NCBI GenBank assembly: GCA_048882505.1
Contig: JBHLRO010000008.1
Location: 30,001-62,000 of the forward strand
DNA length: 32,000 nucleotides
Direction of reading: 5' to 3'
Source: Candidatus Thorarchaeota archaeon
GTDB taxonomy: Archaea; Asgardarchaeota; Heimdallarchaeia; Hodarchaeales; Hodarchaeaceae
The notes under the pieces were generated by a model, which saw only the letters and a list, made by a program, of their open reading frames with translations, ran no database searches and was not told the DNA's origin. The translations under genes and the position numbers were made by a program. Below, piece by piece: positions 3,577 through 30,096 of the stretch; the stretch's first letter is position 1, and each line of letters begins with the position of its first letter.

Positions 3577-3897
3577 ATGGTCTTTTGTGAGAAATGTGGA
3601 ACAGAAAACACAGCATCTGCCAAATTTTGCAAGAGCTGTGGAAATGGCCTGCAAGATAATCCTATATCCCAGCCGGTGAAGCCTCCCCAAACCTCAATAG
3701 GTTTTGGACACCAGCCAACTGGAGAGGAACTAGTTTTGCATTGCAGTTTGTGCGGACATCAAGATTTTGCTAAAGATAGCGGTCGTCTAGATAGTAAATG
3801 GGGTTTTACATCGTTTAAGGTGGCTATTCTGACCTGTAAGCGATGTGGACATGTGGAACTGTTTAACAAGGGTAGGAGTATCTGGGATTTCGACTAG
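3577..3897 (+). CDS. Double zinc-ribbon protein
   Basis: N-terminal CEKC...CKSC ribbon, a P/Q-rich linker, and a C-terminal CSLC...CKRC ribbon. Confidence 0.85.
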   Translation: MVFCEKCGTENTASAKFCKSCGNGLQDNPISQPVKPPQTSIGFGHQPTGEELVLHCSLCGHQDFAKDSGRLDSKWGFTSFKVAILTCKRCGHVELFNKGRSIWDFD

Positions 3898-3913
3898 GAA
3901 ATAAAAAAAAGTA

Positions 3914-3989
3914 TTTGGATTTGAATTGTAATCCAAAATTAAAAAGTAATGAAGAGGGGGAATTTCGGTTTTTAATTCGCACCGAAATT
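3914..3989. terminator. Two tandem stem-loops between convergent genes (possible terminator or 3' UTR structures)
   Basis: tttggatt(3914-3921)/aatccaaa(3930-3937) is a perfect 8-bp stem and aatttcggt(3961-3969)/accgaaatt(3981-3989) is a perfect 9-bp stem. The A-run at 3903-3910 is a T-tract on the minus strand, downstream of ssb. Confidence 0.45.
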
Positions 3990-4024
3990 AATTCTCAAAC
4001 CAGATTTGATCCTGTTTATCTCTC

Positions 4025-4540
4025 TTACCAGCGAGACCGTCTATTGGAACTCTGATTATCATAGTTTCCCGATGAACGGTTGCTTCCGTATGATCCATAT
4101 GATTGCTGCGACCCGTAACTTCCTCTCCTATTTCCGAAGGATTGTCTCCTCGGATCTTCAACGTGAGCGGCAGATCGATCATTCTCAGTGTCGATATTCT
4201 CAAAAACTGTCGAATCTGTATTTATACTGCCGTATTTTCCTTTAGATAAACGTAGCGAATTTTGAAAGACATTAGCAAACCCATTTGATAATTTATAGAC
4301 ATTTTCTTCTTCTAAAGCGTCAATATCTTCATTCCAAAGAGTTAGAGTAATTATTCCTGTCTCATCCGCAACCGTGAAATCACACACTCTGTGAGTCTCA
4401 CCTGTTCGTTTATTGATCTCTCGCTCTTGATTTTTGCTGGTCACCTGAAAAACGACATTTAAGCGTTTTTCCAGGGGCTTGACGTTGGCAATTTTGACGT
4501 CATGTGTTTCTTCTGATTTATAGTTTGACATTAAGTACAC
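4025..4540 (-). CDS. ssb: Single-stranded DNA-binding protein (single OB fold, crenarchaeal SSB/RPA-like) with low-complexity C-terminal tail
   Basis: KIANVKPLEKRLNVVFQV...HRVCDFTVADETGIITLTLWNE...YKLSNGFANVFQNSLRLSKGKYG matches the SSB/RPA OB fold. The start may be the second Met (MSNYKS). Confidence 0.88.
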   Translation of the reverse strand: MYLMSNYKSEETHDVKIANVKPLEKRLNVVFQVTSKNQEREINKRTGETHRVCDFTVADETGIITLTLWNEDIDALEEENVYKLSNGFANVFQNSLRLSKGKYGSINTDSTVFENIDTENDRSAAHVEDPRRQSFGNRRGSYGSQQSYGSYGSNRSSGNYDNQSSNRRSRW

Positions 4541-8566: not shown

Positions 8567-9151
8567 TCATAATTCTTCTTCGACAAACTCTGCGGCATCC
8601 CCATAGATCTTTTCATAGGATATTATGATCTGTGATACGTAGCTTCGAAGCTTTCTAACTTTATTTATCACCTTTGTTTTATCTGTATCCTCATTCATGA
8701 GTTTATGTAAGATTTTTACCTGTTGCTGAATCTTTATCAGAAATTGGTTTACTAGCGGAAAAAACTCTTGATGTATCAGAATATTCGCCGTGAGATCTTC
8801 CTTGCCACCTCTTGCTCCAGGTCGTTCTAATGCGTAACCAAATGACATGACTTTGGCTCTTGTTCCATGAGCTAATACAAAGTCGTAACTTGAAGTAATC
8901 TCTGTATTAAAGGTATCACAGAAACCAGTGCCACTGAAAGATCGATCAGATAGATCCACAAGTTTAGCAAAATTGTCTCTCAAGATTTCAGGTTCCACGA
9001 TGATGGGGATAGGACCATGGCGCTGATCGAAGAAGGAAATTACCACTCCGATGGTATGCTCATCCAGAGAATTGCCTATTTCTCTGTCATTGACTTCTGA
9101 GAGTGTACTCATCACCAATTCTTTGTCAAGACCGACCAATTCAGGTTTCCT
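8567..9151 (-). other. Cytoplasmic uDENN/longin-like domain of the giant protein
   Basis: GVVISFFDQRHGPIPIIVEP resembles the uDENN/longin first strand (FxxxxGP). SFGYALERPGARGGKEDLTANILI resembles the FLCN/SMCR8 'D..ARG..R' hairpin. A C-terminal helical segment follows. Confidence 0.65.
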
Positions 9152-12100
9152 AATGAATTTGACATACACGAGCGAACCAAATATCGCTGCAATAACTGTA
9201 ACGAGGATTACAACTATAACAATAGGCAGAGCCACACCTGGTGGATTATAGGTGAATGCAGTTGCTTGAATGCTGTTGGGATCATCCCGTAGAACATCAA
9301 ATGCAACAATACTGTTACCAGTGCTATCGGTTGTTACAATATAGTAGATGATTTCCCTACTTGTTCCATTGTGATCAAAAGGTACAACCACTTGATAAGT
9401 TGGTATCCCATCAATTGAAGTGTTATGATAAGCCATCTCAACCATTCTATAGCTATAATCGCCGTTTTGATACATACTTGCTCCGTTTCCACCATTTCCT
9501 GAAGCATTAACTGGTTTGAAGTAGTAATAAAGAAGAACTTCTGAAATATTAGATCCATATTCCAGAATACCAGTAATAAATGTCAAATTAGTAGGATTTT
9601 GGTTGTCATCAAAAACCCAGTATGGATCAATTACCCGGGGCGCAACTTCGTCTCTAACGGTGAAATTAAAATGGTAAAGTGAATAAATTTCAAATTGGTT
9701 GCCAAAATAATTGACAGAAGAGATGATTTTTATCCTAACATTGAGGTCTTTATTTAGAGACATGCTCAGCTGATCAGGGGAGATTTCCAGCACTGCAATC
9801 CATAAATCCTTATTGAAACTGCTCTTATCAGCAATTTCAACCAATGAATCATTGAACAATAATTCTACCGCAATTACGTCATTTAGCTGATCAAACGTCA
9901 AAATATTGAACTGATAATGGCCTTCCGTGTCGTTCAGTGGAACAAGAATTTCCTCTGCCTGATTCAGCATTTTTGGTCGGCTTTCAATGGAAATGATATT
10001 TGAGGTTACCTGGAACCAAATAAATCCAGTGTATCTATCATAGGGTGTCACTGTAAAGTACCATTGATCCCCCGCTACGGTATCATTTGCACAGATGATT
10101 GTTCGGTTCTCATAAGATGCTTGCTCGATCCACGATCCATTGATCAGTTTAAACCATTGAATTCTAGAATCCTGGGCATCATTTCCTTCTGAAAAATAAA
10201 ATGAAACTGTTATATTCTCATCTTCCACCAAAAACTCATTCACTCTAATATCTGGATCTACTAGGCTTGTTTGTGTATCAAAACTGAATTGTGCACTTAA
10301 AACTTTTACAGGAATTTGAATTTGCGCCACTATACTATAATTTGAACCATCGTATACCCATAACTGCGCTTGCCATAGATCATCATTACTTAGATAACCG
10401 CTTGGTATCATAACAGAATTGGCCCAAATGGACTGATTTTCTCCATTCCTAAACCAGTTGATTTTGTGTGACGAATCTTCAGGATCATTATCAACGTCAA
10501 AATAACTCCAGTTCAAGTAGAGTACGTTAGCACCATCAATTACTGCAGGGAATAGCTTAATATCTGTGATTTCTGGTTTCGAATTGACAATAAAGATGGA
10601 AGTACTTGTAAAATTCCCGGTTGCCCAATTTGTGCCATCATAAGGACGAATGATAACAATGATTTCATCACCTTTAACGAAATACTGGGAAGAAAGAATA
10701 GAGGTATTTTCAGTCCCACTGATGATCTGCCCGTTCTTCAACCAAAGAAAGATAGTTCGCGTCATATCTAGTGGGTCTCCATCCCAGTCAAAGTAATCGA
10801 ACAAGAATTGAAGATCATCGCTGGTGGTGGGTTTTGGAGTTAACCAGGTAAAACCATGGACTTCAGGATAACTATTCCCGATTATGATAGAGGAAGTATT
10901 TACCCATGATCCAAAAAATCCATAATTGTCTCTTGGACGGATACTAGCCATCCACCTTTCACCTTTGTTAAGATAATATCCGTTAACAACTGAACTTGTT
11001 AGCTCAATCTGCAATTCCCATCTACTAGATGTACCATTGAATTTATACCACCGATATTGAGCTCCAATGTTTTCTGTTACCGCTGCGTATTGAACAGCAG
11101 GATTAAGCTGGAAATCAACATCAAAACTGAAATCAGACTCACCAGAATCTATATCAACGACGAGAGAGGAATAATTAAGATAAATAGGATAGATTCCAGT
11201 GAAAACATTCGTCCCATATGGATGGTCCGCTAAAATAGAGGGCAAGCCTTGAGTAGTGTTGATTTCGGGTGCGGTATTACCTATCAGCTTGATTACATTT
11301 GAACCAGATAACGTCGAAGAATCCACAGGTTGTCCTGTCAACATTCCTCCATCATTGTCATCCGGAGTGATCACTACCCAAATTAAATCCCCTGCAGTAA
11401 ATTCTACGTTCGACAGTGTTGTTATGCCTTCAATTGTTTTAACCGAACCTTGATGAACGATTTTCCATTCTATTTTCGAGTTTTCTGGATCGCCATCTGC
11501 GTCAAAGAAATCGTAGGATAGAAAAACATCATCAGTGGTTGTTGATCCGCCAGTAAGCGTTATATTATCTGCAAATGGTTCTGAATTAGCGATAGTTGTC
11601 GTTCCATATTTCCATAAAATTGGATTACCAAGGGGATCAGACCAATCTTCACCGTCGAAAACATTAACGTAAAAGCGCCAGTTGTCATTTTTGGTTGTAA
11701 AGTTTGAAGAAATTTGAGTTAAATTCTCTAATTGGGGAACAGGATTCAAGTTCTGGTACCAGATAATTATATAGTCCGTTATATTGTCGCCATCTGGATC
11801 CCAATCATCCCACATTGCCAACAACGTATTTGTTGTGAAAATCCCCGTGGGTGGAACGTAGATCTCAGGAGTAAAGGAAACGACTGAAGGCGCTGAATTA
11901 GTAATGGAGACACTTGCATTCAACCAATTCCCAAATTCAGTTCCGTCTGCCACCCTAATTGACACATTCCAAAGATCACCTTTGACAATTAAGCCGCTGT
12001 CAATTACCATCTTGTCATTGTAGGACGGAAGAAAAACATTATTACGGTACCATCTTATAATTGTTCCAGATTCCAAATCAGAATCCGCATCAGAGTAAGA

Positions 12101-15100
12101 ATATGTGACTGAAAGAATATTCCCGCCCTTTGGAATTGTAGGGGAGAAAACGAGACTATTCGCACTTGGTCCAGTATTCCCAATTGTGGTAGACAATGAG
12201 ATTTTGAGGATACCATATTCAGTTCCATCGTGAGGAAGTATCGTTACGTACCAGCTTTGTCCTTTCGCAATTTCGGAGCTAAAAACTGTGGTTTGGTTTC
12301 TAAGGCTGATTTGCTCGATGTCGTTTTTATACCAGCGAATATACGACATCCCCTCCAAATCAGTATCTAAGTCAGAATAATCATAATTTAACATTAAATT
12401 GTCTGTAGTTTTCGGGGTACTTGGAGAAATCACTAGATTATTAACACTCGGCTTTGTATTCAGAATAGTTATATTACTAAGAGAATCTACCCAATTACCA
12501 AAGTCAGCACCATCGGATGGGCGAATCTTGACATGCCATACTTCTCCTTTGGTAGTGTTTCCTGCCTGTACAATTTGAGAATTATTGAGTATACCCTGCA
12601 GTACCCCATCTTTGTACCAAATGATATCAGATCCGCTTTCTGGATCTGAATTAACATCTGTATATGTGTAGACGACAGAGAGATCGTTAGCAGTTTTGGG
12701 ATCAGTAGGAGTAATAGAAATATCAGATATAACAGGAGCGCTATTCATGACTGTTATATTCGATAAGCAACTTGCCCAGTTCCCGAATTCAACACCGTCT
12801 TTAGGTAGAACCTTGAAATGCCAGATATCTCCCTTAGACGTATACCCGGAATCCACGGTCATCGAATTATTCAGAGCACCCTGTAAAACACCATTTTTAT
12901 ACCAAATTATTAATGAACCACTATTTGAATCAGTGGCATTATCAGGGTCTAGCCAATCATATGTTGCGGTCAACGGTTCAGTTGTTTGTGGATTAAAAGG
13001 GCTTATCGCCAAATTATTAGCTGAAGGAGCTGAATTCAGAATAGTGACCGCTGCGGATGTACGCTCTGGCCCGTAATTACTTCCATCTTTAGGGATTAAA
13101 ATAAAGTACCATGTTTGACCCTTGCTAGTGTTAATACCTGGCACCATGGTTTGATTTTCAAAAGCGGCTTCTTCAAGACCATTTCTAAACCAACGTATGT
13201 AAGATCCACTTTCTAGGTCCCCATCTACATCAAAATAATCATAAGATGCAATAAGATTGTCCCCAGTTTTTGCGTTATTGGGTGTAACGGCCAAGTTATT
13301 TGTACTGGGTTGTGTATTTCCTATTGTAACGTTCACTGGGCAGCTTACCCAGTTACCAAAATCAGTTCCATCCTTGGGGTGGACTTTAAAATGCCATACG
13401 TCTCCTTTGGTCGTATTCCCAGCTTTAATAGTACTGGAACCATTTAGGGCACCTTGAAGAACTCCATCCAAATACCAAATGATTTCCGATCCAGTCTCAA
13501 TATCAGAATCAGTGTCACTAAAAATATAGCTTGCGAGAAGATCGTTTCCTGTTAATGCATTTAGAGGAGTGATTTCCAAACCAGCTGCGCTTGGAGGGGT
13601 ATTTCCTATCGTTACATTAACAGAGACACCTATCACGGTTCCGAAGTCCTTTCCGTCACGAGGTTGAACTTTGACATGCCATTGTTCACCTTTTAACGTT
13701 GATGATGCAGAAAGATTTCTGAGGCCATCATACTGACTTAAATGGATCCCATTTCGATACCAATAGTACATTGAGCCAGATTCAGGATCACCATCGCCAT
13801 CAGAATAAGTGTAGTTAATATATAAGTAATCTGATGTAGTAGGATTGGAGTTAGTGAAATTTAAATTACTTGCTACTGGAATCTGGTTTGGGATCGATTG
13901 AATGCTGACCGATGGAGACGTTTGTAGGGAGCTATGATCATATCCATCGGATACCCGAATTGTGAAATACCATATGTCCCCAACTGTTGTATTACCTTCC
14001 CCCACGATCATGCTATCATTTAACGAGGTAACCAAAATCCCATCTTTGTACCATCTTATCTCTCGTGATCCATTATCTTGAGGATCATTGTCAAAATCTG
14101 AATAAACATAAGACACGTGAAGGTCAGAATTATCAGCAACTGGGGATGATTCATTGATCTTCGCACTATTAACTTGTGGTGCTGTATTTCCTATCGTTAC
14201 ATTGTTTAATGACGGAATCCAATTTCCGTAGTCTAACCCATCTGAAGGGTGGACCCTACAATGCCACTCATCGCTTCTTGTAGTGTTTCCTGATCCTATT
14301 ACCATTGTATTATTCAGTTCAGGTTGTAGAACACCATTTTTATACCAGCGAATTTGAGTTCCGCTTTCTAGGTCGCCAATGTCAGCATCAGTCCAGGTAT
14401 AGCTAATTATGAGGCCGTCGGAAGTGGTTGGATTTCCTGGCAATATATCGACGTTACTCGCTATAGGAGCGCTATTACCAATTGTAGCATTTACAATGCT
14501 TTCGACCCAATTACCATAAACAGTACCATCTGAAGGTCGGACTTTGCAGTGCCATTCCTCTCCCCTTGTTGTATAACTTGAATCGACGATATTTGAATTG
14601 TTTAAAGCTCCTTGAAGGATTCCGTCTTTGTACCAAATAATTAACGTACCACTTTCAGTATCGGCATCAGCGTCTGAATACACATAGTTAACATTCAGGT
14701 TATCACTTGTTTTCGGATTTCCAGGAAGGAGAGTCGTACTGCTTGCAGTTGGTGGAGTGTTTCCAACCGTTACAGTGGAAGATTGCTGAAGAATCCCAAA
14801 GTCTCCGCCGTCATTTGGTTTGATGGTAAAGTACCATATCTCACCCTTAGAAGTGTTGCCTGATTGAATCATCAAAGAATTATTAAGGTTTGACTGCAAA
14901 ACGCCATTTTTATACCAGCGAATTTCGGTTAAACCTTCTGGATCGCCATCTACGTCAGAATAATCATAGTTTGCCACTAGATCTTCCCCTGTTACTGGAC
15001 TACTCGGGGAAAGATTTAGATTATTTGCAACGGGAATAGTATTACCTATTGTAACATTTGTACCCAGAGACACCCAGTTTCCATAGTCTTCTCCGTCATT

Positions 15101-18100
15101 AGGACGAACTTTGAAGTGCCATTTTTCGCCTTTGTTGGTACTGCTTGAGGTAACACTTATCGAATCATTTAGGGCCCCTTGTAAGACTCCATCCTTATAC
15201 CAAATTATCCTACTTCCGCTCTGACTATCTGAATCTATATCTGAAAAATCGTAACTTGCTATCAATGAGTCTCCAGTTTTTGGACTATTGGGCGTAATAA
15301 TTAGATTACTTGCTATAGGAGCTGTATTAGCAATAGTAATGTTAGTTAAACAGCTATACCATTGCCCATAATCGGTACCATCAGAAGGTTTTATCTTATA
15401 GTGCCATTCTTCTCCTTTAGCTGAATAACTTGAGCTTATTATCTTCGTATCGTTCAATACTCCCTGAAGGATCCCGTTTTTATACCATATAATCTGGCTC
15501 CCTATCTCAAGGTCACTGTCATTGTCTGAAAAGTCATAAAATGCCTCAAAATTCTCCCCTGTTTTTGGGGCCGAGGAGGTTATATTCAGATTGGCCACAA
15601 TAGGTGCAGTATTGATAATGGTCACTGCAGCTGATTGCTGTTGATTACCATAATCTTCACCATCACTAGGTCGAATAGTGAAGTACCAGTTCTCACCTTT
15701 AGTTGTCACGGAGGAAGGAACCGTGGTTTGGTTTTCGTAGCTAGATTGTTCAATCCCATTTTTAAACCAACGAATGTAAGTTCCGCTTTCTAGGTCCCCG
15801 TTTGGATCAGAATAATCATAGGAAGCAATTAGATTATGATCGGTTTTTGGATTGCTGGGTGAGATAGCTAAATTACTCACTAAGGGAATACTATTGTAAA
15901 TAATAACACTAGACGAACTCATCCAGTTTGAATTATTGATACCATCATTAACCTTAATTTCGTAATGCCACTGTTGATTCTTAGTGGTATTTCCTGATGT
16001 AATAAAAGCCGAATCGTTTAAATTAACCTGAAGGACTCCATCCTTATACCAATAGATCTGTCGATTGCCAATATTCTCTGAATCTCCGTCATAATCATTA
16101 AAATTATAATTTACGCTTAATATGGACGTTGTCACTGGATTTACAGGAGATATGACAGCATTAAATACAGTAGGAGCCGTATTCTGGACCGTAACTGTCT
16201 CCGTATCGTTTAATATCCCGAATTCTTGACCGTCTTTCGGTTTTACAGTAGCATTCCATGAATCTGATTTGAACAGAGCTGAAGCTGGTATTTGTTTTAT
16301 GTCATTATAGGCGGTTTGAAGAATTCCATTTTTATACCAACGGATTTCTGTTCCCCCTTCACTGTCTCCATCTTTGTCATAGAAGTCATAATCCAGATAA
16401 AGAGTACTATTACTATAAACAGGGAGGAGAACTGAACCTGAATCACGAGATAACGTTAAATTTTCCGCTAGAGGAAAATGGTTAATAATAGGGACATATC
16501 CCTGGTGTACACCAGAGGTAACGGAATTGCCTGAAGTGTCATTTACTGTTATCACAAATTTAATCGAACCTGAGTCCATTATGATTGTATCATTTATGTA
16601 ACCTGCTGGTGTTGATTGCATAACTGCCCACCGTTTCCCTTGGGGGACGGTTCCCTCTGTAACATTAACAATGACTGTATCAACCACCCCCCAGGTATCT
16701 GAAACGTTTGTTTTAAATGTACCATATTCTCCTGTGTCAGGGTAATATTCCCAATCATCAACGTTTGGATCGGTGGTATCTATGCTAAATGTATGATTTT
16801 TGATACCTGATGGTGATTGTAGGTAATTATTCCAATAATCTGAGGCATTTACGATTTGGTATTCATAACTAGATAAGAAAGTCACGGATTTTTGATAGGT
16901 CCAATGTGTTCCATTAAAGTTCATCCCATATTCAGTGCCGTTAATTTTTATTGTTACGCTTTTCACATTCGTTGTTGAATCTGTTACATCAGCCCAGAAT
17001 TTTCCTACCCCTTTTCCGGGATCATCAATCCCAAAATCATTTATTACCGGAGGATTTTTATCAATTACAATTTCAGGACCGATGGAATAGAAACTAGTGG
17101 GATTAAGTTGATTTTGATATTCTGTCATGATCCACCCACCAGAATGTGGAACATTGGAAATTCTAACTTCATCAATAACACCGTCAAAAAAATCAGAATA
17201 AAAACCAGAGTCTCCCCAAATCCCAATGAGGAAATTTCGAGAGATTTCTCCCCAGCTTGTTGAATTTGAACCCTGGTTTTGTGAATTAACGATTCCTCTA
17301 ACATTAGCTCCGTTATAAGAGCTCATCACGTAATACCATTCCCCAACCGTTAAAGCTGAACCGAAAGAATAAGTGATTCCTCCATCTATGATAAAAACAC
17401 GATCAAGTAATCCCATATACCTAAAATCGACCCCATTTTCTTCCCCGATGCTGACAATGCTACGATAACTGGGATTTACCGCCTCCAATTTTATCCAAGC
17501 GGATATAGTAAAACTCGTAGTGGTAACAGTACTAACGCTAATAAGACCGTCATCTATTCCATCAAAATCTATACCTTTAGATATTTGTGCATCTACTATA
17601 TCCGCAGTGCTCATTGATCCTACGGTGGATAAATCCGCATCGTTGTCCGTACTATCAAATACTGAGGCGGGAGTATAGCTAATCTTAATCCAAACCTGTG
17701 TAGCCTTGGTAACCATGGAATAGCTACTCCCCAGTTCGACACCGATTTCCAGGTTGTTAAGTTCTTCCCAAGTCCAGGTCGTACCTGTATAAGGACTTTC
17801 TGTGTATTCAGTAAAATAATTCTGATACGCTGTTGTAAGAGAGGTATCGGTTCCAAAATAATTTGTACTATAAGATCTTATGAAAGTTCTAACTTTAGGT
17901 GTACCCATAGGAATGCTATCGACGCTAGCTCGAACATATATCGTCACTTTATCAATTCTCCCGAGACCGTTAATCGGATCCATAAAATTATAGGAATCTA
18001 TTCTTCGTTGTGTAGATGAGCTTGAAGTTGACCATTGAACATGAGTCGAGTCCTCATCAGGATTTTCCTCATCTACCATTGCCCAGTTGTTTCCAGCTGG

Positions 18101-20878
18101 AGAAGAAGTAAGTTCAGTATAGGTACCTATACTGTTCGGTCTAAATATAATGGATGAGCTACTGGCTACAACAGGCGATTCGTCCATATGATGGACTGCT
18201 AAATACTTTGATGGCCAGACTTGTTCAGGATTTTCCTGCTTTGGAAGCTCATTATTTCCATAATACATCGAGAATGGAGTATCCTCTGTATTAAATACCT
18301 CTGGCAGATTCACCCACGCCACAAGATGACCTTCAATACTGGTCTGCGTAAAACTATCGATTTCATGAGCTAATTTGGTGCCATCAGCACTAATAAATAA
18401 AATATCGTCTGCATCGGGTTGAACACGTCCAGTTTTTAATGCACTATCTGTTATATCCACCAATACTGGAAAGTCAATCAAATTCTGAAAAACTTTTGTA
18501 TTATTAACGAGTATGTCTTTCTTATAGTCAAATGAGGCATCTCTGAACCAAAAACCAAATTCTTCCTCTTCTCTTATGATATAAAAGCTGTTTGGATCAT
18601 ACTGATTGTTATATTCAGTAGCAATCCAATTAGCTGACCTTTTGAAGTTGGAAATACGAATTTCATCCATATAACCTCTATAGGTATCGCCCCAATATTG
18701 TTCACGACCAAATTGTAAAGGCTGATTGTTGGGAGTTATTGTCCCAGGTTTACTAGCCGAATATATTGAGGTTCCATTTGTATAAATCTCAACATAGGAT
18801 CCATCATAGGTTAAAACGACATACAACCAGACTTCTCTATTAACAGTCACACCAGAATCTACCGAAGAGGTAGTTACTCCTTCTAAGTTATATGTGATTT
18901 GATTAGAATTATTTATATACCAGATCGCATAAGGACTATTAGGAGCTTCATCCTTCGCTAATACAGGTAAGCTCCATTGAAAATAATCAGCTTTTGTCCA
19001 CACAGAGATGGTAAGATTTTGCGTAATATCTAAACTAGGACTATCAGCTATGCTAACAAAATCTTCAAACGCGTTGAAACCGACACTGCCATAAATCTGT
19101 CCTGACGCTCCTAGTTCAACTGTACCGTAATCTGTTCCATGATTATAATTACTGGTTGAGTCCTTAATAGCTAAACTACCCCCATTAGCTTCGCTTAGAT
19201 GCCAAACACCTGCATAATTACTATCCCAAACTCCCTCTGGATTTTGCTGAGGTCCCAGCGCGGCATTTCCGTAATACATTGAAATGGTTGTATTACTAGT
19301 TCCAGATAAATTAGGTACTTTTATCCAAGCAATCAAGCGAGCATGTGTTGAAGTATAAGTTTGATTGAAGAGCTCAATCTCATGATCAAGTTTTGTACCC
19401 AAAACATCGGCGAACGCGATATCGTCACCATCTACTTGAACCTTATCCGTACTGTGAAGATCGGTATCATAAAGATCTAATAATACTGGAAAATTAACTA
19501 AAGTGCCGCTCCCGCTAACTTGTGAAGCCAAGATTGTTACATTCTTACGGAATTTTAACATCGGAATAGCCCACTCCCCCTCACCTACATATTCTTCTTC
19601 GGTCCCAATTGAGTAGAATGTTGAGGGGTCTTTTTGATTGTTGTATTCAGTCTGTATCCATTCGAGTGAATGTATTTCATTGGAGACGCGGGGTTCATCT
19701 ATTGTTCCATTAACGGGGTAGAAAGAATTAGAAAAAACAAGACTGTTGGCAGTATCAACACTATCCACGAAATCAAAATTCTGAGCTGAAATGAATAAAC
19801 CATTTTTATAGATTCTAATATTATTGTCCAATCTGTTAGCTACACCAACAAGATAGGTCCAAGAACCATAAGGGATTGTTGGCCAGCCTGCTGCGGCTCC
19901 TCCATCAGCTGTTGTACCGTCATTATCTCCATCACAAACATAAAAAGCAGCGCTTTGGCCACTATTTATTTCTAATGTATAACCTTGGTTACCACTGCTT
20001 GTTCCTCCCTTATAAAGGGGCATTTGAAATGTCCCAGTGTATTCAATATTAATCCACGTACTAACTGTGAAATTACCAGTCCCAAAATCTAAGTGCCCGT
20101 CAATTGGGTCGCCTGCACTAACCGTTGTCCCTGAATTGCCATCGAAGTCATATGCATAACCAATTTGACCCAAGTTGCCTTGAGTCACTCCCCCATTCAA
20201 GTTTCCAGAGGTGGCGAAAGATGTGGAATCTCTAGCATTCCCACTTTTTTCCCCTAAATGCCATACACCGACGTAATTTTCTTCCCATACGGCAGTGGGG
20301 TTTTCTTGAGCTGCTGCTGCCGGATTTCCATAATACATGGATACGATAGTATTCTGCGTGCTAGAAAGATTCATTTTTACCCAGGCAACCAGATGAGAAT
20401 GAGTCCTATTGTAAACTCTTTCATAACTTTCAATTTCATGATCTAGGATATTTCCAGAGTTATCTGAAAACATTATATCATTTCCACTAGCCTGAGCATC
20501 TTGCTGTAAGTCTGGGTCATATAAATTTACTAGTACAGGAAAATTGGCAAGATCAGCAAGTACCTTAGAAGATTGAATAGTGATGTTTTTTCTGAACTCC
20601 CACCTAGTATCCGCCCATCCTGGTACAAAGTAATTCGATCGTTTTAGCCTGACAGATGTTGTATTGTTTAGAAGATTTGTTGAATCCTTGGTCAATTTCG
20701 GTATAGTTTTTTGAATGGCCTTCCTATTCATGTTCAACTTCCCTTCTCTTAAAAAATCTGCAATAAAATGATTTGAATCCAACAATTCTTCCTCTTGGAG
20801 GGGAATTGTAGATAGGATGATATTGATGGTCAAAATGCTGATTAAAAAAAATTTAACGACATAATGGGAGGAAAGCAA
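8567..20878 (-). CDS. Giant (4103 aa) single-pass cell-surface protein: signal peptide, 3x DUF2341+LamG-like modules, about 22 cadherin/Ig-like repeats, TM helix, cytoplasmic uDENN/longin-like domain
   Basis: Uninterrupted 12.3-kb ORF with a hydrophobic N-terminus (VVKFFLISILTINIILS). It has three 'RKNITI...NFPVL...D..F.D..G..L.HEIE...AWV...SMYYGN' modules, tandem ~95-100 aa N.AP...DxDxD.E...WYKNG...W...P.DG repeats, and a TM segment VALPIVIVVILVTVIAAIFGSLVYVKFI followed by RK and a 194-aa tail. Confidence 0.93.
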   Translation of the reverse strand: MLSSHYVVKFFLISILTINIILSTIPLQEEELLDSNHFIADFLREGKLNMNRKAIQKTIPKLTKDSTNLLNNTTSVRLKRSNYFVPGWADTRWEFRKNITIQSSKVLADLANFPVLVNLYDPDLQQDAQASGNDIMFSDNSGNILDHEIESYERVYNRTHSHLVAWVKMNLSSTQNTIVSMYYGNPAAAAQENPTAVWEENYVGVWHLGEKSGNARDSTSFATSGNLNGGVTQGNLGQIGYAYDFDGNSGTTVSAGDPIDGHLDFGTGNFTVSTWINIEYTGTFQMPLYKGGTSSGNQGYTLEINSGQSAAFYVCDGDNDGTTADGGAAAGWPTIPYGSWTYLVGVANRLDNNIRIYKNGLFISAQNFDFVDSVDTANSLVFSNSFYPVNGTIDEPRVSNEIHSLEWIQTEYNNQKDPSTFYSIGTEEEYVGEGEWAIPMLKFRKNVTILASQVSGSGTLVNFPVLLDLYDTDLHSTDKVQVDGDDIAFADVLGTKLDHEIELFNQTYTSTHARLIAWIKVPNLSGTSNTTISMYYGNAALGPQQNPEGVWDSNYAGVWHLSEANGGSLAIKDSTSNYNHGTDYGTVELGASGQIYGSVGFNAFEDFVSIADSPSLDITQNLTISVWTKADYFQWSLPVLAKDEAPNSPYAIWYINNSNQITYNLEGVTTSSVDSGVTVNREVWLYVVLTYDGSYVEIYTNGTSIYSASKPGTITPNNQPLQFGREQYWGDTYRGYMDEIRISNFKRSANWIATEYNNQYDPNSFYIIREEEEFGFWFRDASFDYKKDILVNNTKVFQNLIDFPVLVDITDSALKTGRVQPDADDILFISADGTKLAHEIDSFTQTSIEGHLVAWVNLPEVFNTEDTPFSMYYGNNELPKQENPEQVWPSKYLAVHHMDESPVVASSSSIIFRPNSIGTYTELTSSPAGNNWAMVDEENPDEDSTHVQWSTSSSSTQRRIDSYNFMDPINGLGRIDKVTIYVRASVDSIPMGTPKVRTFIRSYSTNYFGTDTSLTTAYQNYFTEYTESPYTGTTWTWEELNNLEIGVELGSSYSMVTKATQVWIKISYTPASVFDSTDNDADLSTVGSMSTADIVDAQISKGIDFDGIDDGLISVSTVTTTSFTISAWIKLEAVNPSYRSIVSIGEENGVDFRYMGLLDRVFIIDGGITYSFGSALTVGEWYYVMSSYNGANVRGIVNSQNQGSNSTSWGEISRNFLIGIWGDSGFYSDFFDGVIDEVRISNVPHSGGWIMTEYQNQLNPTSFYSIGPEIVIDKNPPVINDFGIDDPGKGVGKFWADVTDSTTNVKSVTIKINGTEYGMNFNGTHWTYQKSVTFLSSYEYQIVNASDYWNNYLQSPSGIKNHTFSIDTTDPNVDDWEYYPDTGEYGTFKTNVSDTWGVVDTVIVNVTEGTVPQGKRWAVMQSTPAGYINDTIIMDSGSIKFVITVNDTSGNSVTSGVHQGYVPIINHFPLAENLTLSRDSGSVLLPVYSNSTLYLDYDFYDKDGDSEGGTEIRWYKNGILQTAYNDIKQIPASALFKSDSWNATVKPKDGQEFGILNDTETVTVQNTAPTVFNAVISPVNPVTTSILSVNYNFNDYDGDSENIGNRQIYWYKDGVLQVNLNDSAFITSGNTTKNQQWHYEIKVNDGINNSNWMSSSSVIIYNSIPLVSNLAISPSNPKTDHNLIASYDYSDPNGDLESGTYIRWFKNGIEQSSYENQTTVPSSVTTKGENWYFTIRPSDGEDYGNQQQSAAVTIINTAPIVANLNITSSAPKTGENFEAFYDFSDNDSDLEIGSQIIWYKNGILQGVLNDTKIISSSYSAKGEEWHYKIKPSDGTDYGQWYSCLTNITIANTAPIASNLIITPNSPKTGDSLIASYDFSDIDSDSQSGSRIIWYKDGVLQGALNDSISVTSSSTNKGEKWHFKVRPNDGEDYGNWVSLGTNVTIGNTIPVANNLNLSPSSPVTGEDLVANYDYSDVDGDPEGLTEIRWYKNGVLQSNLNNSLMIQSGNTSKGEIWYFTIKPNDGGDFGILQQSSTVTVGNTPPTASSTTLLPGNPKTSDNLNVNYVYSDADADTESGTLIIWYKDGILQGALNNSNIVDSSYTTRGEEWHCKVRPSDGTVYGNWVESIVNATIGNSAPIASNVDILPGNPTTSDGLIISYTWTDADIGDLESGTQIRWYKNGVLQPELNNTMVIGSGNTTRSDEWHCRVHPSDGLDYGNWIPSLNNVTIGNTAPQVNSAKINESSPVADNSDLHVSYVYSDFDNDPQDNGSREIRWYKDGILVTSLNDSMIVGEGNTTVGDIWYFTIRVSDGYDHSSLQTSPSVSIQSIPNQIPVASNLNFTNSNPTTSDYLYINYTYSDGDGDPESGSMYYWYRNGIHLSQYDGLRNLSASSTLKGEQWHVKVQPRDGKDFGTVIGVSVNVTIGNTPPSAAGLEITPLNALTGNDLLASYIFSDTDSDIETGSEIIWYLDGVLQGALNGSSTIKAGNTTKGDVWHFKVHPKDGTDFGNWVSCPVNVTIGNTQPSTNNLAVTPNNAKTGDNLIASYDYFDVDGDLESGSYIRWFRNGLEEAAFENQTMVPGINTSKGQTWYFILIPKDGSNYGPERTSAAVTILNSAPSANNLAISPFNPQTTEPLTATYDWLDPDNATDSNSGSLIIWYKNGVLQGALNNSMTVDSGYTSKGDIWHFKVLPKDGVEFGNWASCLSNITVMNSAPVISDISITPTDPKTANDLSVVYTYTDVNSDPESGSDIIWYKDGVLQGILNNSQIVQAGNTTKGEVWHVKIRPSDGADFGNWVDSLSNITILNTKPSVNNLVISPSTPKTTDNLMLNYDYSDLDTDLEGMSYIRWYKNDIEQISLRNQTTVFSSEIAKGQSWYVTILPHDGTEYGILKISLSTTIGNTGPSANSLVFSPTIPKGGNILSVTYSYSDADSDLESGTIIRWYRNNVFLPSYNDKMVIDSGLIVKGDLWNVSIRVADGTEFGNWLNASVSITNSAPSVVSFTPEIYVPPTGIFTTNTLLAMWDDWDPDGDNITDYIIIWYQNLNPVPQLENLTQISSNFTTKNDNWRFYVNVFDGEDWSDPLGNPILWKYGTTTIANSEPFADNITLTGGSTTTDDVFLSYDFFDADGDPENSKIEWKIVHQGSVKTIEGITTLSNVEFTAGDLIWVVITPDDNDGGMLTGQPVDSSTLSGSNVIKLIGNTAPEINTTQGLPSILADHPYGTNVFTGIYPIYLNYSSLVVDIDSGESDFSFDVDFQLNPAVQYAAVTENIGAQYRWYKFNGTSSRWELQIELTSSVVNGYYLNKGERWMASIRPRDNYGFFGSWVNTSSIIIGNSYPEVHGFTWLTPKPTTSDDLQFLFDYFDWDGDPLDMTRTIFLWLKNGQIISGTENTSILSSQYFVKGDEIIVIIRPYDGTNWATGNFTSTSIFIVNSKPEITDIKLFPAVIDGANVLYLNWSYFDVDNDPEDSSHKINWFRNGENQSIWANSVMIPSGYLSNDDLWQAQLWVYDGSNYSIVAQIQIPVKVLSAQFSFDTQTSLVDPDIRVNEFLVEDENITVSFYFSEGNDAQDSRIQWFKLINGSWIEQASYENRTIICANDTVAGDQWYFTVTPYDRYTGFIWFQVTSNIISIESRPKMLNQAEEILVPLNDTEGHYQFNILTFDQLNDVIAVELLFNDSLVEIADKSSFNKDLWIAVLEISPDQLSMSLNKDLNVRIKIISSVNYFGNQFEIYSLYHFNFTVRDEVAPRVIDPYWVFDDNQNPTNLTFITGILEYGSNISEVLLYYYFKPVNASGNGGNGASMYQNGDYSYRMVEMAYHNTSIDGIPTYQVVVPFDHNGTSREIIYYIVTTDSTGNSIVAFDVLRDDPNSIQATAFTYNPPGVALPIVIVVILVTVIAAIFGSLVYVKFIRKPELVGLDKELVMSTLSEVNDREIGNSLDEHTIGVVISFFDQRHGPIPIIVEPEILRDNFAKLVDLSDRSFSGTGFCDTFNTEITSSYDFVLAHGTRAKVMSFGYALERPGARGGKEDLTANILIHQEFFPLVNQFLIKIQQQVKILHKLMNEDTDKTKVINKVRKLRSYVSQIIISYEKIYGDAAEFVEEEL
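9983..16483 (-). repeat. About 22 tandem ~95-100 aa cadherin-like/Ig-like repeats
   Basis: Counted by hand from NHFP (16483) to SNIISIE (9983). Nearly every unit has an N-x-x-P start, a DxDxD-x-E loop, WY[KR][ND]G, and W-x5-P-x-DG. Confidence 0.85.
17065..20617 (-). repeat. Three tandem DUF2341 + LamG/concanavalin-like modules (approx. 19580-20617, 18555-19573, 17065-18550)
   Basis: Repeated motifs FPVL, HEIE/HEID, MYYGN, ENP..VW...Y.GVWHL.E, DEPRVS/DEIRIS/DEVRIS and WI.TEY.NQ..P.SFY, read in the translation. Confidence 0.8.
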
Positions 20879-20911
20879 CTTCTCTCATACTCTTTAGATT
20901 TTCTAGAGGAT

Positions 20912-20926
20912 CTATAAAGTTTAATA
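20912..20926 (-). promoter_or_regulatory. Putative archaeal BRE/TATA promoter for the giant surface-protein gene
   Basis: The minus strand reads ATTAAAC-TTTATAG, ending about 34 nt upstream of the TTG at 20878, which fits a near-leaderless transcript. Confidence 0.4.
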
Positions 20927-22321
20927 TTGACACCAGAGCTTCAAATATATGTACTGCACCCCTCATCCTGAACAAAAAGTTCATTGAAACAGTGAATCCC
21001 ATTTAACTTGCGAAATATCGTTTTTTATAAATTTAGAACGAGGGAAGTTTCACAGATTATTGTAGCTACACTCTTCTGAGTGATTTGCCTGTAGATTCAC
21101 GATAGCCCGAAACTGAGATTTCTCATTTTCGAAGAGTTTACTTTTAATGGTGATCGACCATACAGAGCCACCATATTAAAGTAAAACTAGATATTCTCTT
21201 CGGTATTAATTCAAATTAACAACTGTGCTCATGATCCAGCGAAACCCTCTTTCAAGCCACCGATTACAGGTTAGAGTGGCCGAATATAACGTGGGTATCA
21301 ATTATTAACAGAGTTTCCGAACATCAACTAGTATATTTCGATTCGTCTTGATCTGTTGATTCCTACTGGCGAGCATTAACATCAAAAGATTGAATAGGTC
21401 CAGTCCTTGAAAGAGTGGGCGTCTCACAACTTCCTATCTGGATTCATTTAATTATACCGATGTTCCTTAGAAAATGGTTTCAACCTCACTTGGCATTATA
21501 GAAAGAAACTAGATAATCTAAATTCATAGAATCAACTTTTGAAGATTTAAGCGATCAAAGACGATTTATATAGCCAAAAAGGATTTGTATTTATGTTTGT
21601 ACCAAAACTCGATTAGTTTATATGAATATAAATGATGACGATTTTTTTCTTGGCACTCACCCTTTATCAGCGGTATATAACTTTCACCCAGAATACTCGT
21701 TCTTCCTTCTTCCGTTCCGTTTTTGTACATTCGTGCCTCTACAATATGCTTGGACTTGTTGTGATTGAGTAAGTGATAAATGGAGCTTAGTTTGGCTGGA
21801 GAAACAATACATGTTAGATTGGCGGTAAAAATTGTGATAAGAATAAGAGAATTTAAACACCAAATTCACAGGAAGAAGTCAAAACCACCCAAGGTTTTTA
21901 GAGTAGACCCCATCATGGACTACGTTTACCCTATGAAACAGATCAGGTTTGACTGCGATAAGAAGTTCGGTCTGGCGATCTGGTATAGCCAACTTGGCGT
22001 AAGATAGTTTGTCTAATGTGTGTCAATGGTATGAGTATCTAGTTTCCGATGATGTTGTACCTTTGGATAAGATATCACCATAATCCCGTAGGTTTTGTTG
22101 TTTGACTCCTTGTATGGCCGTTTGCCTTTAAAAAGAAATGAAAAAAACGCCGTTCTGGTTACCTTGTGTAGGTGCTAGGTATCCAGAATTCTATTAAAAG
22201 CAAGTTACGGTCTAAATTCCTTCCGTTTTTTCAAAACGATCGCCCAGTCCAGGCCGCTTTTCCTGGTTAAGCAAGGATTTGTTTTTAATTTCAGCATCAG
22301 AAAGCCAATAGACATCATTAA

Positions 22322-29187: not shown

Positions 29188-30096
29188 TCAGGTTTTTCTT
29201 TTCTTGAAGTCCTTTCGAGTCTCATTTTTTTCCACAGAATTAACGGGAATTAAACAAGCTTTACCGTTTCGGGCCTCTATCCTAACATAGTTTCCTATAC
29301 CAGTTTCTCGTCTTATATTCTCGGGAATCCTCATATTTCCATCGTCATCAACAAAAGTAAGTTCTTCGCGCTCGCCATCGGGAGTTTCTGGGCCTAAAAT
29401 GCCTTGTACTCCAATGATTCTTCCGTCTTTAATCCTTAAAACCTTATCGGTCATCCTAGCAAACCGGAGGTCATGCGTGACAACAAGGAAAGTTTTACCT
29501 AGTGAATAATTCAGTTCCTTGAAATAATCTATTATATTTAAGGTAGTCGCGCTATCCAACTCACCTGTAGGTTCATCAGCTAATAGGATTTCAGGATCGT
29601 TGGCCAGAGCAACTGCAATTCCTGCTCTTTGAGCTTCACCACCCGAGAGTTGGGAAGGTTTATGCTTTATCCTGTTTTTAAGACCGACATCTTCAAGGAG
29701 TTGCTTCGCTCGTATCTTTTTTTCAGTTCCAGACAAATTCCCGGCAAGTTTCATGGGTATAATGACGTTCTTTAGGATGGTAAGATTCCACATTAGGTTT
29801 CGCCTTGGAAACTGATACAAGAAACCAACGCTTTCTCGGCGAAAACGGTTCAATTGTCTTCTTGTCATGGATGTAATGACATTTTCCCCAACAGTTATTT
29901 CGCCTGAGGAAGCGGGTTCAAGCCCACCAAGCATTTTGATCAATGTCGATTTTCCCGATCCACTGGGCCCCACTATTGCTATAAGTTCTCCCTCATTTCC
30001 TGAGAGTTCAATACCACGTAAAGCTGCTACTTGAACTTCACTGTTTAATCCAGTGTAGATTTTTATAACGTCTTTACACTCAAGAAACGCCATCAT
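29188..30096 (-). CDS. ABC transporter ATP-binding protein (LolD/MacB-type) with C-terminal AbrB-like extension
   Basis: Walker A GPSGSGKST, LSGGEAQR, ILLADEPTGELD, VVTHD. The tail DDDGNMRIPENIRRETGIG resembles AbrB/SpoVT. An ATGA overlap with the upstream permease stop suggests translational coupling. Confidence 0.93.
   Translation of the reverse strand: MMAFLECKDVIKIYTGLNSEVQVAALRGIELSGNEGELIAIVGPSGSGKSTLIKMLGGLEPASSGEITVGENVITSMTRRQLNRFRRESVGFLYQFPRRNLMWNLTILKNVIIPMKLAGNLSGTEKKIRAKQLLEDVGLKNRIKHKPSQLSGGEAQRAGIAVALANDPEILLADEPTGELDSATTLNIIDYFKELNYSLGKTFLVVTHDLRFARMTDKVLRIKDGRIIGVQGILGPETPDGEREELTFVDDDGNMRIPENIRRETGIGNYVRIEARNGKACLIPVNSVEKNETRKDFKKRKT

Follow-up and report, generated by a model that had tools for sequence, protein, structure and literature searches.

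We analysed a stretch of 32,000 nucleotides (the window) that covers positions 30,001 to 62,000 of contig JBHLRO010000008.1 in the assembly GCA_048882505.1 of a Candidatus Thorarchaeota archaeon placed in the Hodarchaeales. Its reverse strand carries an open reading frame (ORF) for a giant surface protein, and the subject of this work is the conserved C-terminal tail of that protein, in which a first-pass annotation had proposed the arginine finger of a GTPase-activating protein (GAP). By computation we obtained the topology of the protein, the fold of its tail, the correspondence of the tail motifs to those of folliculin (FLCN), their conservation, and the linkage and fusion of the tail family to Rag-like GTPases.

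Architecture of the giant surface protein

Within residues 1-1300 of the 4,103-residue protein Pfam finds three DUF2341 and three Laminin_G_3 domains, while the repeat stalk and the tail contain no curated Pfam family. Because the N-terminus is hydrophobic, a single transmembrane (TM) helix is followed by the basic stretch KFIRK, and N-x-S/T sequons occur on the ectodomain side only (93 before the TM helix and 0 in the tail), the protein fits a type-I topology, which would place the tail inside the cell. The features and their positions are given in Table 1.

Table 1. Features of the giant surface protein and its tail (positions are those of the window; fractions are counts among the aligned tails)
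Feature	Residues	Window position	Strand	Basis
Giant ORF, 4,103-residue single-pass surface protein		8567..20878	(-)	TTG start; stop codon 8567-8569; frame uninterrupted
N-terminal hydrophobic segment VVKFFLISILTINIILSTIP, presumed signal peptide or anchor	7-26	20801..20860	(-)	read from sequence
Presumed ectodomain, DUF2341/LamG modules followed by repeats of about 95 residues	27-3882	9233..20800	(-)	Pfam, sequence
TM helix ALPIVIVVILVTVIAAIFGSLVYV, followed by basic KFIRK	3883-3906	9161..9232	(-)	sequence; positive-inside rule
Cytoplasmic tail, 197 residues	3907-4103	8570..9160	(-)	conserved C-terminal module
Juxtamembrane G-L-D	3916-3918	9125..9133	(-)	G 95/106, D 97/106
Longin-fold core (tail 36-186)	3942-4092	8603..9055	(-)	AlphaFold2 model, VIA-align
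GP motif, directly before β2 (FFDQRHGPIPIIVEP)	3955-3956	9011..9016	(-)	G 106/106, P 104/106 homologues
Hairpin peptide FGYALERPGARGGKEDLTANILI	4013-4035	8774..8842	(-)	in frame
β4-β5 hairpin loop P-G-A-R-G-G-K-E-D	4020-4028	8795..8821	(-)	alignment, AlphaFold2 model
R4023 (tail R117), candidate arginine finger, codon AGA	4023	8810..8812	(-)	conservation and profile position
R4078 (tail R172), on the last long helix	4078	8645..8647	(-)	invariant, 106/106

Fold, conservation and arginine of the tail

The AlphaFold2 model of the tail, for which an alignment of 106 full-length tails (A1) was the input, has a mean predicted local distance difference test score (pLDDT) of 93.1 and a predicted template modelling score (pTM) of 0.88. 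In tail numbering, which is that of A1 (R117 is R4023 and G49 is G3955), the model contains strands at 36-45, 49-56, 88-95, 101-112 and 120-130 and helices at 58-78, 131-156 and 161-186, and the topology of its core is β1-β2-α1-β3-β4-β5-α2-α3. R117 lies in the loop formed by residues 113-119 between β4 and β5, and the GP motif (residues 49-50) stands at the start of β2.

The best structural match found with VIA-align is the longin domain of a dimeric Roadblock-Longin protein from Lokiarchaeota (8YQG, chain 8yqg_B), with a Z-score of 13.7 and an r.m.s.d. of 3.0 Å over 140 residues; this protein differs from the tail in being a soluble roadblock-longin fusion. High scores were also obtained for folliculin (8dhb_J, 6nzd_H and 6ulg_L with 12.7, 11.6 and 11.5, respectively), the Lst4 longin (11.7), the GATOR1 chains of about 370 residues (11.2, over their residues 5-143) and C9orf72 (7o2w_A, 11.1), compared to 9.1 for DENND1B and 7-8 for TRAPP, Ykt6, sedlin and AP sigma. 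The folliculin chain identity was confirmed, and chain B of 7o2w is SMCR8. As modelled, the tail is a longin fold that is closer to the GAP longins than to generic longins. The top Foldseek match of the model is a chain from the FLCN-FNIP2-Rag-Ragulator complex. Foldseek also returned LOV/PAS domains with good E-values, at r.m.s.d. values of 8-18 Å and TM-scores of about 0.3; these disappeared under VIA-align and were rejected as generic α/β similarity. Look-ups in the ESM Atlas by features and by shape led to Asgard clusters, some of them with PF11704, and to LST7/Folliculin, NPR2, C9orf72 and Avl9/uDENN clusters. A homodimer prediction from two copies of the tail with A1 as input scored 0.00 and gives no verdict either way.

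When 1.84 billion representative proteins were searched exhaustively with phmmer, 137 relatives of the tail came up, 120 of them at E ≤ 1e-10. The listed relatives are 69-5,809 residues long, and 105 are matched over nearly the full tail, with matches that end no more than about 12 residues from the C-terminus. The positions that are invariant or nearly so in A1 comprise G49, P50, P52 and P57 within the motif FFDQxxGPIPxxxxP, the residues D72, S74, F75, S76 and F80, then P114, R117, E121 and N122 within P-E-A-R-G-G-x-E-N, which is the family consensus at the hairpin loop, and finally F140, R172 and Y186. The first-pass annotation had proposed to check whether the arginine is conserved among Asgard homologues: it is kept in 104 of the 106 tails and in 31 of the 33 whose identity to the query is below 35%, and the tails that lack it are the two most divergent rows of the alignment. 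R4078 is kept more strictly than the candidate finger (106/106 vs. 104/106). An orthologous tail at the end of a 1,535-residue protein (G026, L024:836-5443) reads FDQRKGAIPLV, with GA for GP, and keeps AARGGFEN.

All public records of the tail family are named “hypothetical protein” and have no precomputed Pfam domain; they come mostly from metagenome-assembled genomes of Hodarchaeales, Hodarchaeota and Kariarchaeaceae. One relative, P0277, is 63% identical to the tail and labelled “Planctomycetota bacterium” in NCBI; all other relatives are from Asgard archaea, and the contig behind this record has probably been mis-binned. Of 301 genomes sampled from the phylum, 79 contain a match to the A1 profile. 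Such matches are present in 19 of 20 genomes of the genus to which the window belongs, mostly in 2-10 copies each, and in two other families of the class (20/29 and 8/11 genomes), where they typically lie in ORFs of about 1,500 residues; elsewhere they are scattered and weaker.

The first-pass annotation had read a G-A-R-G-G motif at positions 8790-8850 as a possible arginine finger and had compared it with the fingers of FLCN and SMCR8. The peptide that it quoted is real, its span covers the motif core, and G-A-R-G-G corresponds to residues 4021-4025 with R4023 in the center. Both human motifs that it gave agree with PDB sequences, in which the folliculin chain 6ulg_L reads KDSLAR164GFQRW and the SMCR8 chain 6lt0_B reads LYDLEAR147GFVRPF. 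By itself the tripeptide ARG is uninformative, as it is expected by chance 0.32 times in the whole protein and 0.015 times in the tail; what exceeds chance is its conservation and its position.

Three folliculin fragments align ungapped to the Pfam profile PF11704 (residues 140-200 to positions 37-97, 150-189 to 47-86 and 158-212 to 55-109), and therefore R164 of FLCN is position 61 of the profile. The hairpin arginine falls on this same position in four proteins of the genome, in local matches below the Pfam threshold that start at 47, 49, 44 and 54: two paralogous tails (R112 on contig C10 and R110 on contig C9), a 446-residue cytosolic FLCN-like protein (R109, on C2) and a 299-residue response regulator (R238, on C6). 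Among the 106 tails, PF11704 is by far the commonest Pfam match and the sole recurrent one (28/106, below threshold, best E-value 2e-4). The alignment of R4023 with the FLCN finger is thus borne out by the longin fold, the β4-β5 hairpin and, via the paralogous tails, position 61. Because of these profile coordinates and the conservation in 104 of 106 tails, the arginine is found to be neither unaligned nor unconserved, the two outcomes that the first-pass annotation had named as speaking against its proposal.

A second motif can be compared as well. The structural alignments start at residue 36 of the model and residue 2 of FLCN, and if the first strand and the following loop are ungapped, H48-G49-P50 of the tail would fall on H14-G15-P16 of FLCN. 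According to the text of a recent study (Traffic 2025, PMC12290439), a GP motif at the start of β2, spatially beside the β4-β5 arginine finger, is the signature of GAP longins: both features are present in FLCN, NPRL2, SMCR8 and C9orf72 as well as in 15 Asgard longins of the “FLCN/SMCR8 type”, and they are absent from FNIP2, NPRL3 and the TRAPP, adaptin and DENND longins. The tail carries both.

The two smaller proteins with an arginine at position 61 have their own genomic contexts. The 446-residue protein (G000:C2:281500-282840 (+), L001:1228-2568) has an N-terminal FLCN-like longin with AGP and PDPSVRGKN, scores 22.4-23.1 bits against PF11704, right at the cut-off, and has an uncharacterised C-terminal half; a gene for an Arf-like GTPase lies 4.4 kb downstream. 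The 299-residue protein (G000:C6:54848-55747 (-), L004:1423-2322) combines a REC domain with a FLCN-like longin that has YGP and DPEVRGG. Its gene is directly downstream of one for a REC-PAS-PAS-HisKA-HATPase hybrid kinase and is flanked by genes for Ras-family and Rag-like GTPases (neighbours at C6:55800-57878, C6:54033-54752 and C6:52307-53551). It is an example of the fusions of two-component domains to NPRL2-like longins described in the text of Liu et al.

Genomic association with Rag-like GTPases

The genome (4.3 Mb in 83 contigs, 94.6% complete) carries nine strong copies of the tail and one divergent copy, which end ORFs of 823-10,069 residues. The strong copies are located on contigs C35, C4 (two), C1, C17, C50, C9 (two) and C10, and all of them keep GP and the arginine. 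The 10,069-residue frame, on C10, reaches near the end of its contig.

In a search of the genome for Gtr1_RagA (PF04670), five of the seven best matches were less than 5 kb from a tail-bearing gene, at three loci (binomial P of about 1e-7; with the three loci as the unit of counting, 4e-4). On C1, the giant gene is followed on its own strand, after 57 nt, by the gene for a 300-residue Gtr1/RagA protein, and another such gene is 4 kb away. The paralogous loci also encode longin or roadblock proteins that lack the arginine, an example being the 304-residue ORF at G000:C1:28178-29092. On C4, a gene convergent with the tail gene encodes a 739-residue protein that has its Rag-like G domain at the N-terminus, and the gene for a 313-residue Rag-like protein comes next. 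On C50 the gene for a 648-residue Rag-like protein converges on the tail gene. The association is seen beyond this genome as well. Two other families of the class contribute six genomes in which the tail gene is followed, 160-190 nt downstream, by the start of a Rag-like gene, usually with a second one a few kb further, and in the single-contig genome G026 two of the four Rag-like genes are less than 3 kb from its only tail gene (P of about 2e-5). In two more distant Asgard families (G213, L022, C1:3013450-3014859; G147, L023, C1:208112-209554) the same longin forms the N-terminal part of a fusion with a Rag-like G domain, in proteins of 469 and 480 residues, respectively, which retain EGP and ARG; candidate GAP and GTPase are there one chain. 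Fusions of longins to Rag GTPases and of NPRL2-like longins to two-component domains have been described in the text of Liu et al. (bioRxiv 10.1101/2020.10.19.343400) and by Tran et al. (PMC10933270).

A genomic association with Rag-like GTPases is thus seen in the tail family, by synteny and fusion, and was not found for the present gene within the 32-kb window. Among its paralogues, this tail is most similar to the C1 tail (67% identity), whose gene has the Rag gene beside it. Neither a GTPase nor a roadblock or longin gene was found near the giant gene in the window, and for this reason an operon-based assignment of a substrate to this paralogue was dropped. Its neighbours encode a peptidase S9, an α/β hydrolase, EamA, DUF1684, ABC/FtsX, thioesterase and DUF255 proteins, and the nearest small-GTPase matches on the contig are about 35 kb away. 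Two further observations concern the window itself. Upstream of the giant gene, about 1.4 kb (20879-22321) contain no ORF of at least 100 residues on either strand, an unusually long non-coding stretch for an archaeal genome, and a 171-residue ORF at 4025-4540 (-) has a low-complexity end rich in S/Y/G/N/Q/R (...SYGSQQSYGSYGSNRSSGNYDNQSSNRRSRW).

Candidate GAP function, alternatives and implications

The tail is very probably a membrane-tethered longin of the FLCN/SMCR8/NPRL2 type and a candidate Rag GAP. FLCN (yeast Lst7) is the catalytic subunit of the FLCN-FNIP GAP for RagC/D (PF11704; PDB-codes: 6NZD, 6ULG, 8DHB). The tail shares with it the longin fold (Z-scores of 11.5-12.7), an HGP before β2 (H14-G15-P16 within CELHGPRTLF in FLCN, H3954-G3955-P3956 in the tail), the A-R-G of the β4-β5 hairpin at position 61 of PF11704, and, judged by the genomic linkage of the tail family, an association with Rag-family GTPases. 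It differs in lacking a DENN domain, a known FNIP-like partner and a long β2-α1 insert, in being joined covalently to the membrane under an ectodomain of 3,900 residues, and in its identity of about 13% and sub-threshold Pfam scores. NPRL2 (yeast Npr2), a subunit of GATOR1, is a GAP for RagA/B. GATOR1/SEA-complex chains of the size of NPRL2 match the tail over their residues 5-143 with Z-scores of 10-11, the Atlas look-ups find NPR2-annotated clusters, and Rag as the substrate family agrees with the synteny; on the other hand, NPRL2 has its own C-terminal region and works with NPRL3 and DEPDC5. SMCR8 resembles the tail family in its L-E-A-R147-G-F, compared to the consensus P-E-A-R-G-G, and its partner C9orf72 has a longin that matches the tail model with a Z-score of about 11. 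It is, however, a soluble longin-DENN protein of 937 residues that forms a heterotrimer with C9orf72 and WDR41 and acts as an Arf/Rab GAP, whereas the tail is linked to Rag-like GTPases. The GP motif is common to SMCR8 and the tail (text of PMC12290439).

How could such a tail work? It would sit at the inner membrane face, under the huge lectin/Ig-like ectodomain, and bind a small GTPase of the Rag family (Gtr1/RagA-like), and R4023 would enter the nucleotide pocket and speed up GTP hydrolysis. If the ectodomain makes contacts or clusters, this could then set the local state of the GTPase, in the manner of a receptor-type GAP. A membrane-anchored off-switch for a GTPase is plausible from the sequence and the model; that this paralogue binds a GTPase, that R4023 is catalytic and that the ectodomain regulates the tail are our inferences for the most likely mechanism. 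Plexins are single-pass receptors of animals with a cytoplasmic Rap/Ras GAP domain. They offer an analogy to the proposed receptor GAP, as they link a large ectodomain for adhesion or ligand binding, by way of one TM helix, to an intracellular GAP module for small GTPases; their GAP fold is RasGAP-like rather than a longin, and there is no homology. Of the proposal in the first-pass annotation that the tail is a membrane-tethered GAP module, the tether, the longin fold and the correspondence of the arginine have stood up, while the GAP role is that of a candidate.

Several points weigh against the candidate GAP reading. The correspondence of R4023 to the FLCN finger was derived from profile coordinates and topology, not from a residue-level superposition in three dimensions. 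This tail does not match PF11704 even at an E-value of 10, and the paralogous tails, with 18.0 and 14.5 bits, stay below the gathering threshold of 23.3. When A1 was aligned to a single folliculin sequence with hhalign, one local match placed R117 on R164, which at an E-value of 0.38 and a probability of 0.15% is not significant and serves as a consistency check only. Searches of the PDB sequences with the tail (phmmer) and with the A1 profile found no longin GAP. The weak matches to reverse gyrase and designed helical bundles seen in the PDB sequences are noise. In eukaryotes, GAP longins work as one half of a longin heterodimer and have DENN domains besides; in the tail, the last longin helix is followed by about 10 residues and by no DENN domain. 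No gene for a heterodimeric longin partner was found in the 32-kb window, where no systematic partner search was made, and the lack of a GTPase gene near the giant gene counts on the same side. Moreover, a conserved arginine need not be catalytic, because R4078 is invariant too. For the whole tail family, GAP activity is a candidate function, suggested by fold, motifs and gene linkage.

Could the FLCN-like longin bind Rag-like GTPases without catalysis? It might serve as an anchor, a scaffold, an effector dock or a platform that resembles guanine nucleotide exchange factors (GEFs), with the arginine and the GP motif needed for binding or for stability of the fold. We regard this as unlikely, but it is the alternative that survives best. 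Fold, synteny and fusions indicate association with a GTPase, not the direction of regulation; the tail has neither a DENN domain nor a known partner, and the G026 homologue has replaced GP by GA. In addition, longin/roadblock platforms are more often GEFs or scaffolds than GAPs, and most of their dimers belong to these classes (PMC10933270). Against a purely binding role stands the combination of GP with a β4-β5 arginine, which in the text of PMC12290439 is specific to GAP-type longins, together with the near-complete conservation of the arginine, its retention in the longin-Rag fusions and its mapping to the position of FLCN R164.

Less probable still, and in our view improbable, is a passive domain for the structure, sorting or cytoskeletal anchoring of an adhesin, whose likeness to folliculin would reflect the common longin fold only. 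This explanation gains from the lack of a GTPase neighbour at the present gene, from the fact that only three of the about ten tail genes in the genome have one, and from the occurrence of longin folds in SNAREs and coat subunits (Z-scores of 7-8). A passive tail, however, would leave unexplained that in three families tail genes have a Rag-like gene directly downstream and that two more families have in-frame longin-Rag fusions. In VIA-align the scores of SNARE and coat longins are clearly lower than those of the GAP-type longins, and the near-invariant P-E-A-R-G-G-x-E-N represents conservation of a surface loop, which is typical of a functional site. That the A-R-G is a chance tripeptide without homology to FLCN/SMCR8 is very improbable: although ARG is unremarkable in a protein of such size and the direct alignment of the profile to FLCN is not significant, its conservation, its matching position in the secondary structure, the co-occurring GP motif and the identical PF11704 position in four independent local alignments all speak against it.

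Taking both sides together, we lean slightly towards the tail being a membrane-tethered longin of the FLCN/SMCR8/NPRL2 type in which R4023 is the true equivalent of the finger and acts on a Rag-like GTPase.

Parts of this picture are already known. Asgard longins of the NPRL2/FLCN type, their GP and arginine motifs and their fusions to Rag GTPases or two-component domains have been reported. The Asgard longins with GP and arginine (text of PMC12290439) and the NPRL2-like asCOGs (text of Liu et al.) share with the tail the phylum, the fold and the two motifs, and the published types of fusion, to two-component domains and to Rag GTPases, occur in this genome and its relatives as well. In the published texts on these longins (figures and Data S1 aside) there is no mention of tails of giant surface proteins, and in the portions of the literature that were covered by our search we did not come across an expanded family whose members are giant single-pass surface proteins that end inside the cell in such a longin, with Rag genes as conserved neighbours.

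At the lysosome, Rag and Arf GTPases are under the control of longin GAPs (FLCN-FNIP, GATOR1, C9orf72-SMCR8), which are tied to Birt-Hogg-Dube syndrome, epilepsy and amyotrophic lateral sclerosis/frontotemporal dementia. Here the signature of GAP longins is found in the archaeal group closest to eukaryotes, on the ends of surface proteins. Did Rag-GAP chemistry predate eukaryotes, and was its first place of action the cell membrane, downstream of surface contact, and not an internal organelle? A small domain of 197 residues that is modelled with confidence, together with named candidate substrates, among them the Rag-like GTPases at G000:C1:25193-26095, C1:29098-30003, C4:49729-50670, C4:50863-53082 and C50:3947-5893, makes both questions approachable. 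The present locus adds less to them, being one of about ten paralogues and without a GTPase neighbour, and other loci are better starting points. Tentatively, and at somewhat less than even chances, we suggest that Asgards of the Hodarchaeales type possess a family of giant adhesin-like receptors whose FLCN-type tails act directly as arginine-finger GAPs on Rag-like GTPases, a receptor-GAP ancestor or analogue, at the plasma membrane, of the eukaryotic FLCN/GATOR1-Rag axis. If this is true, contacts at the cell surface would have been coupled to small-GTPase switching before eukaryotes existed, and the protein described here would be one such receptor, with its GTPase encoded elsewhere.

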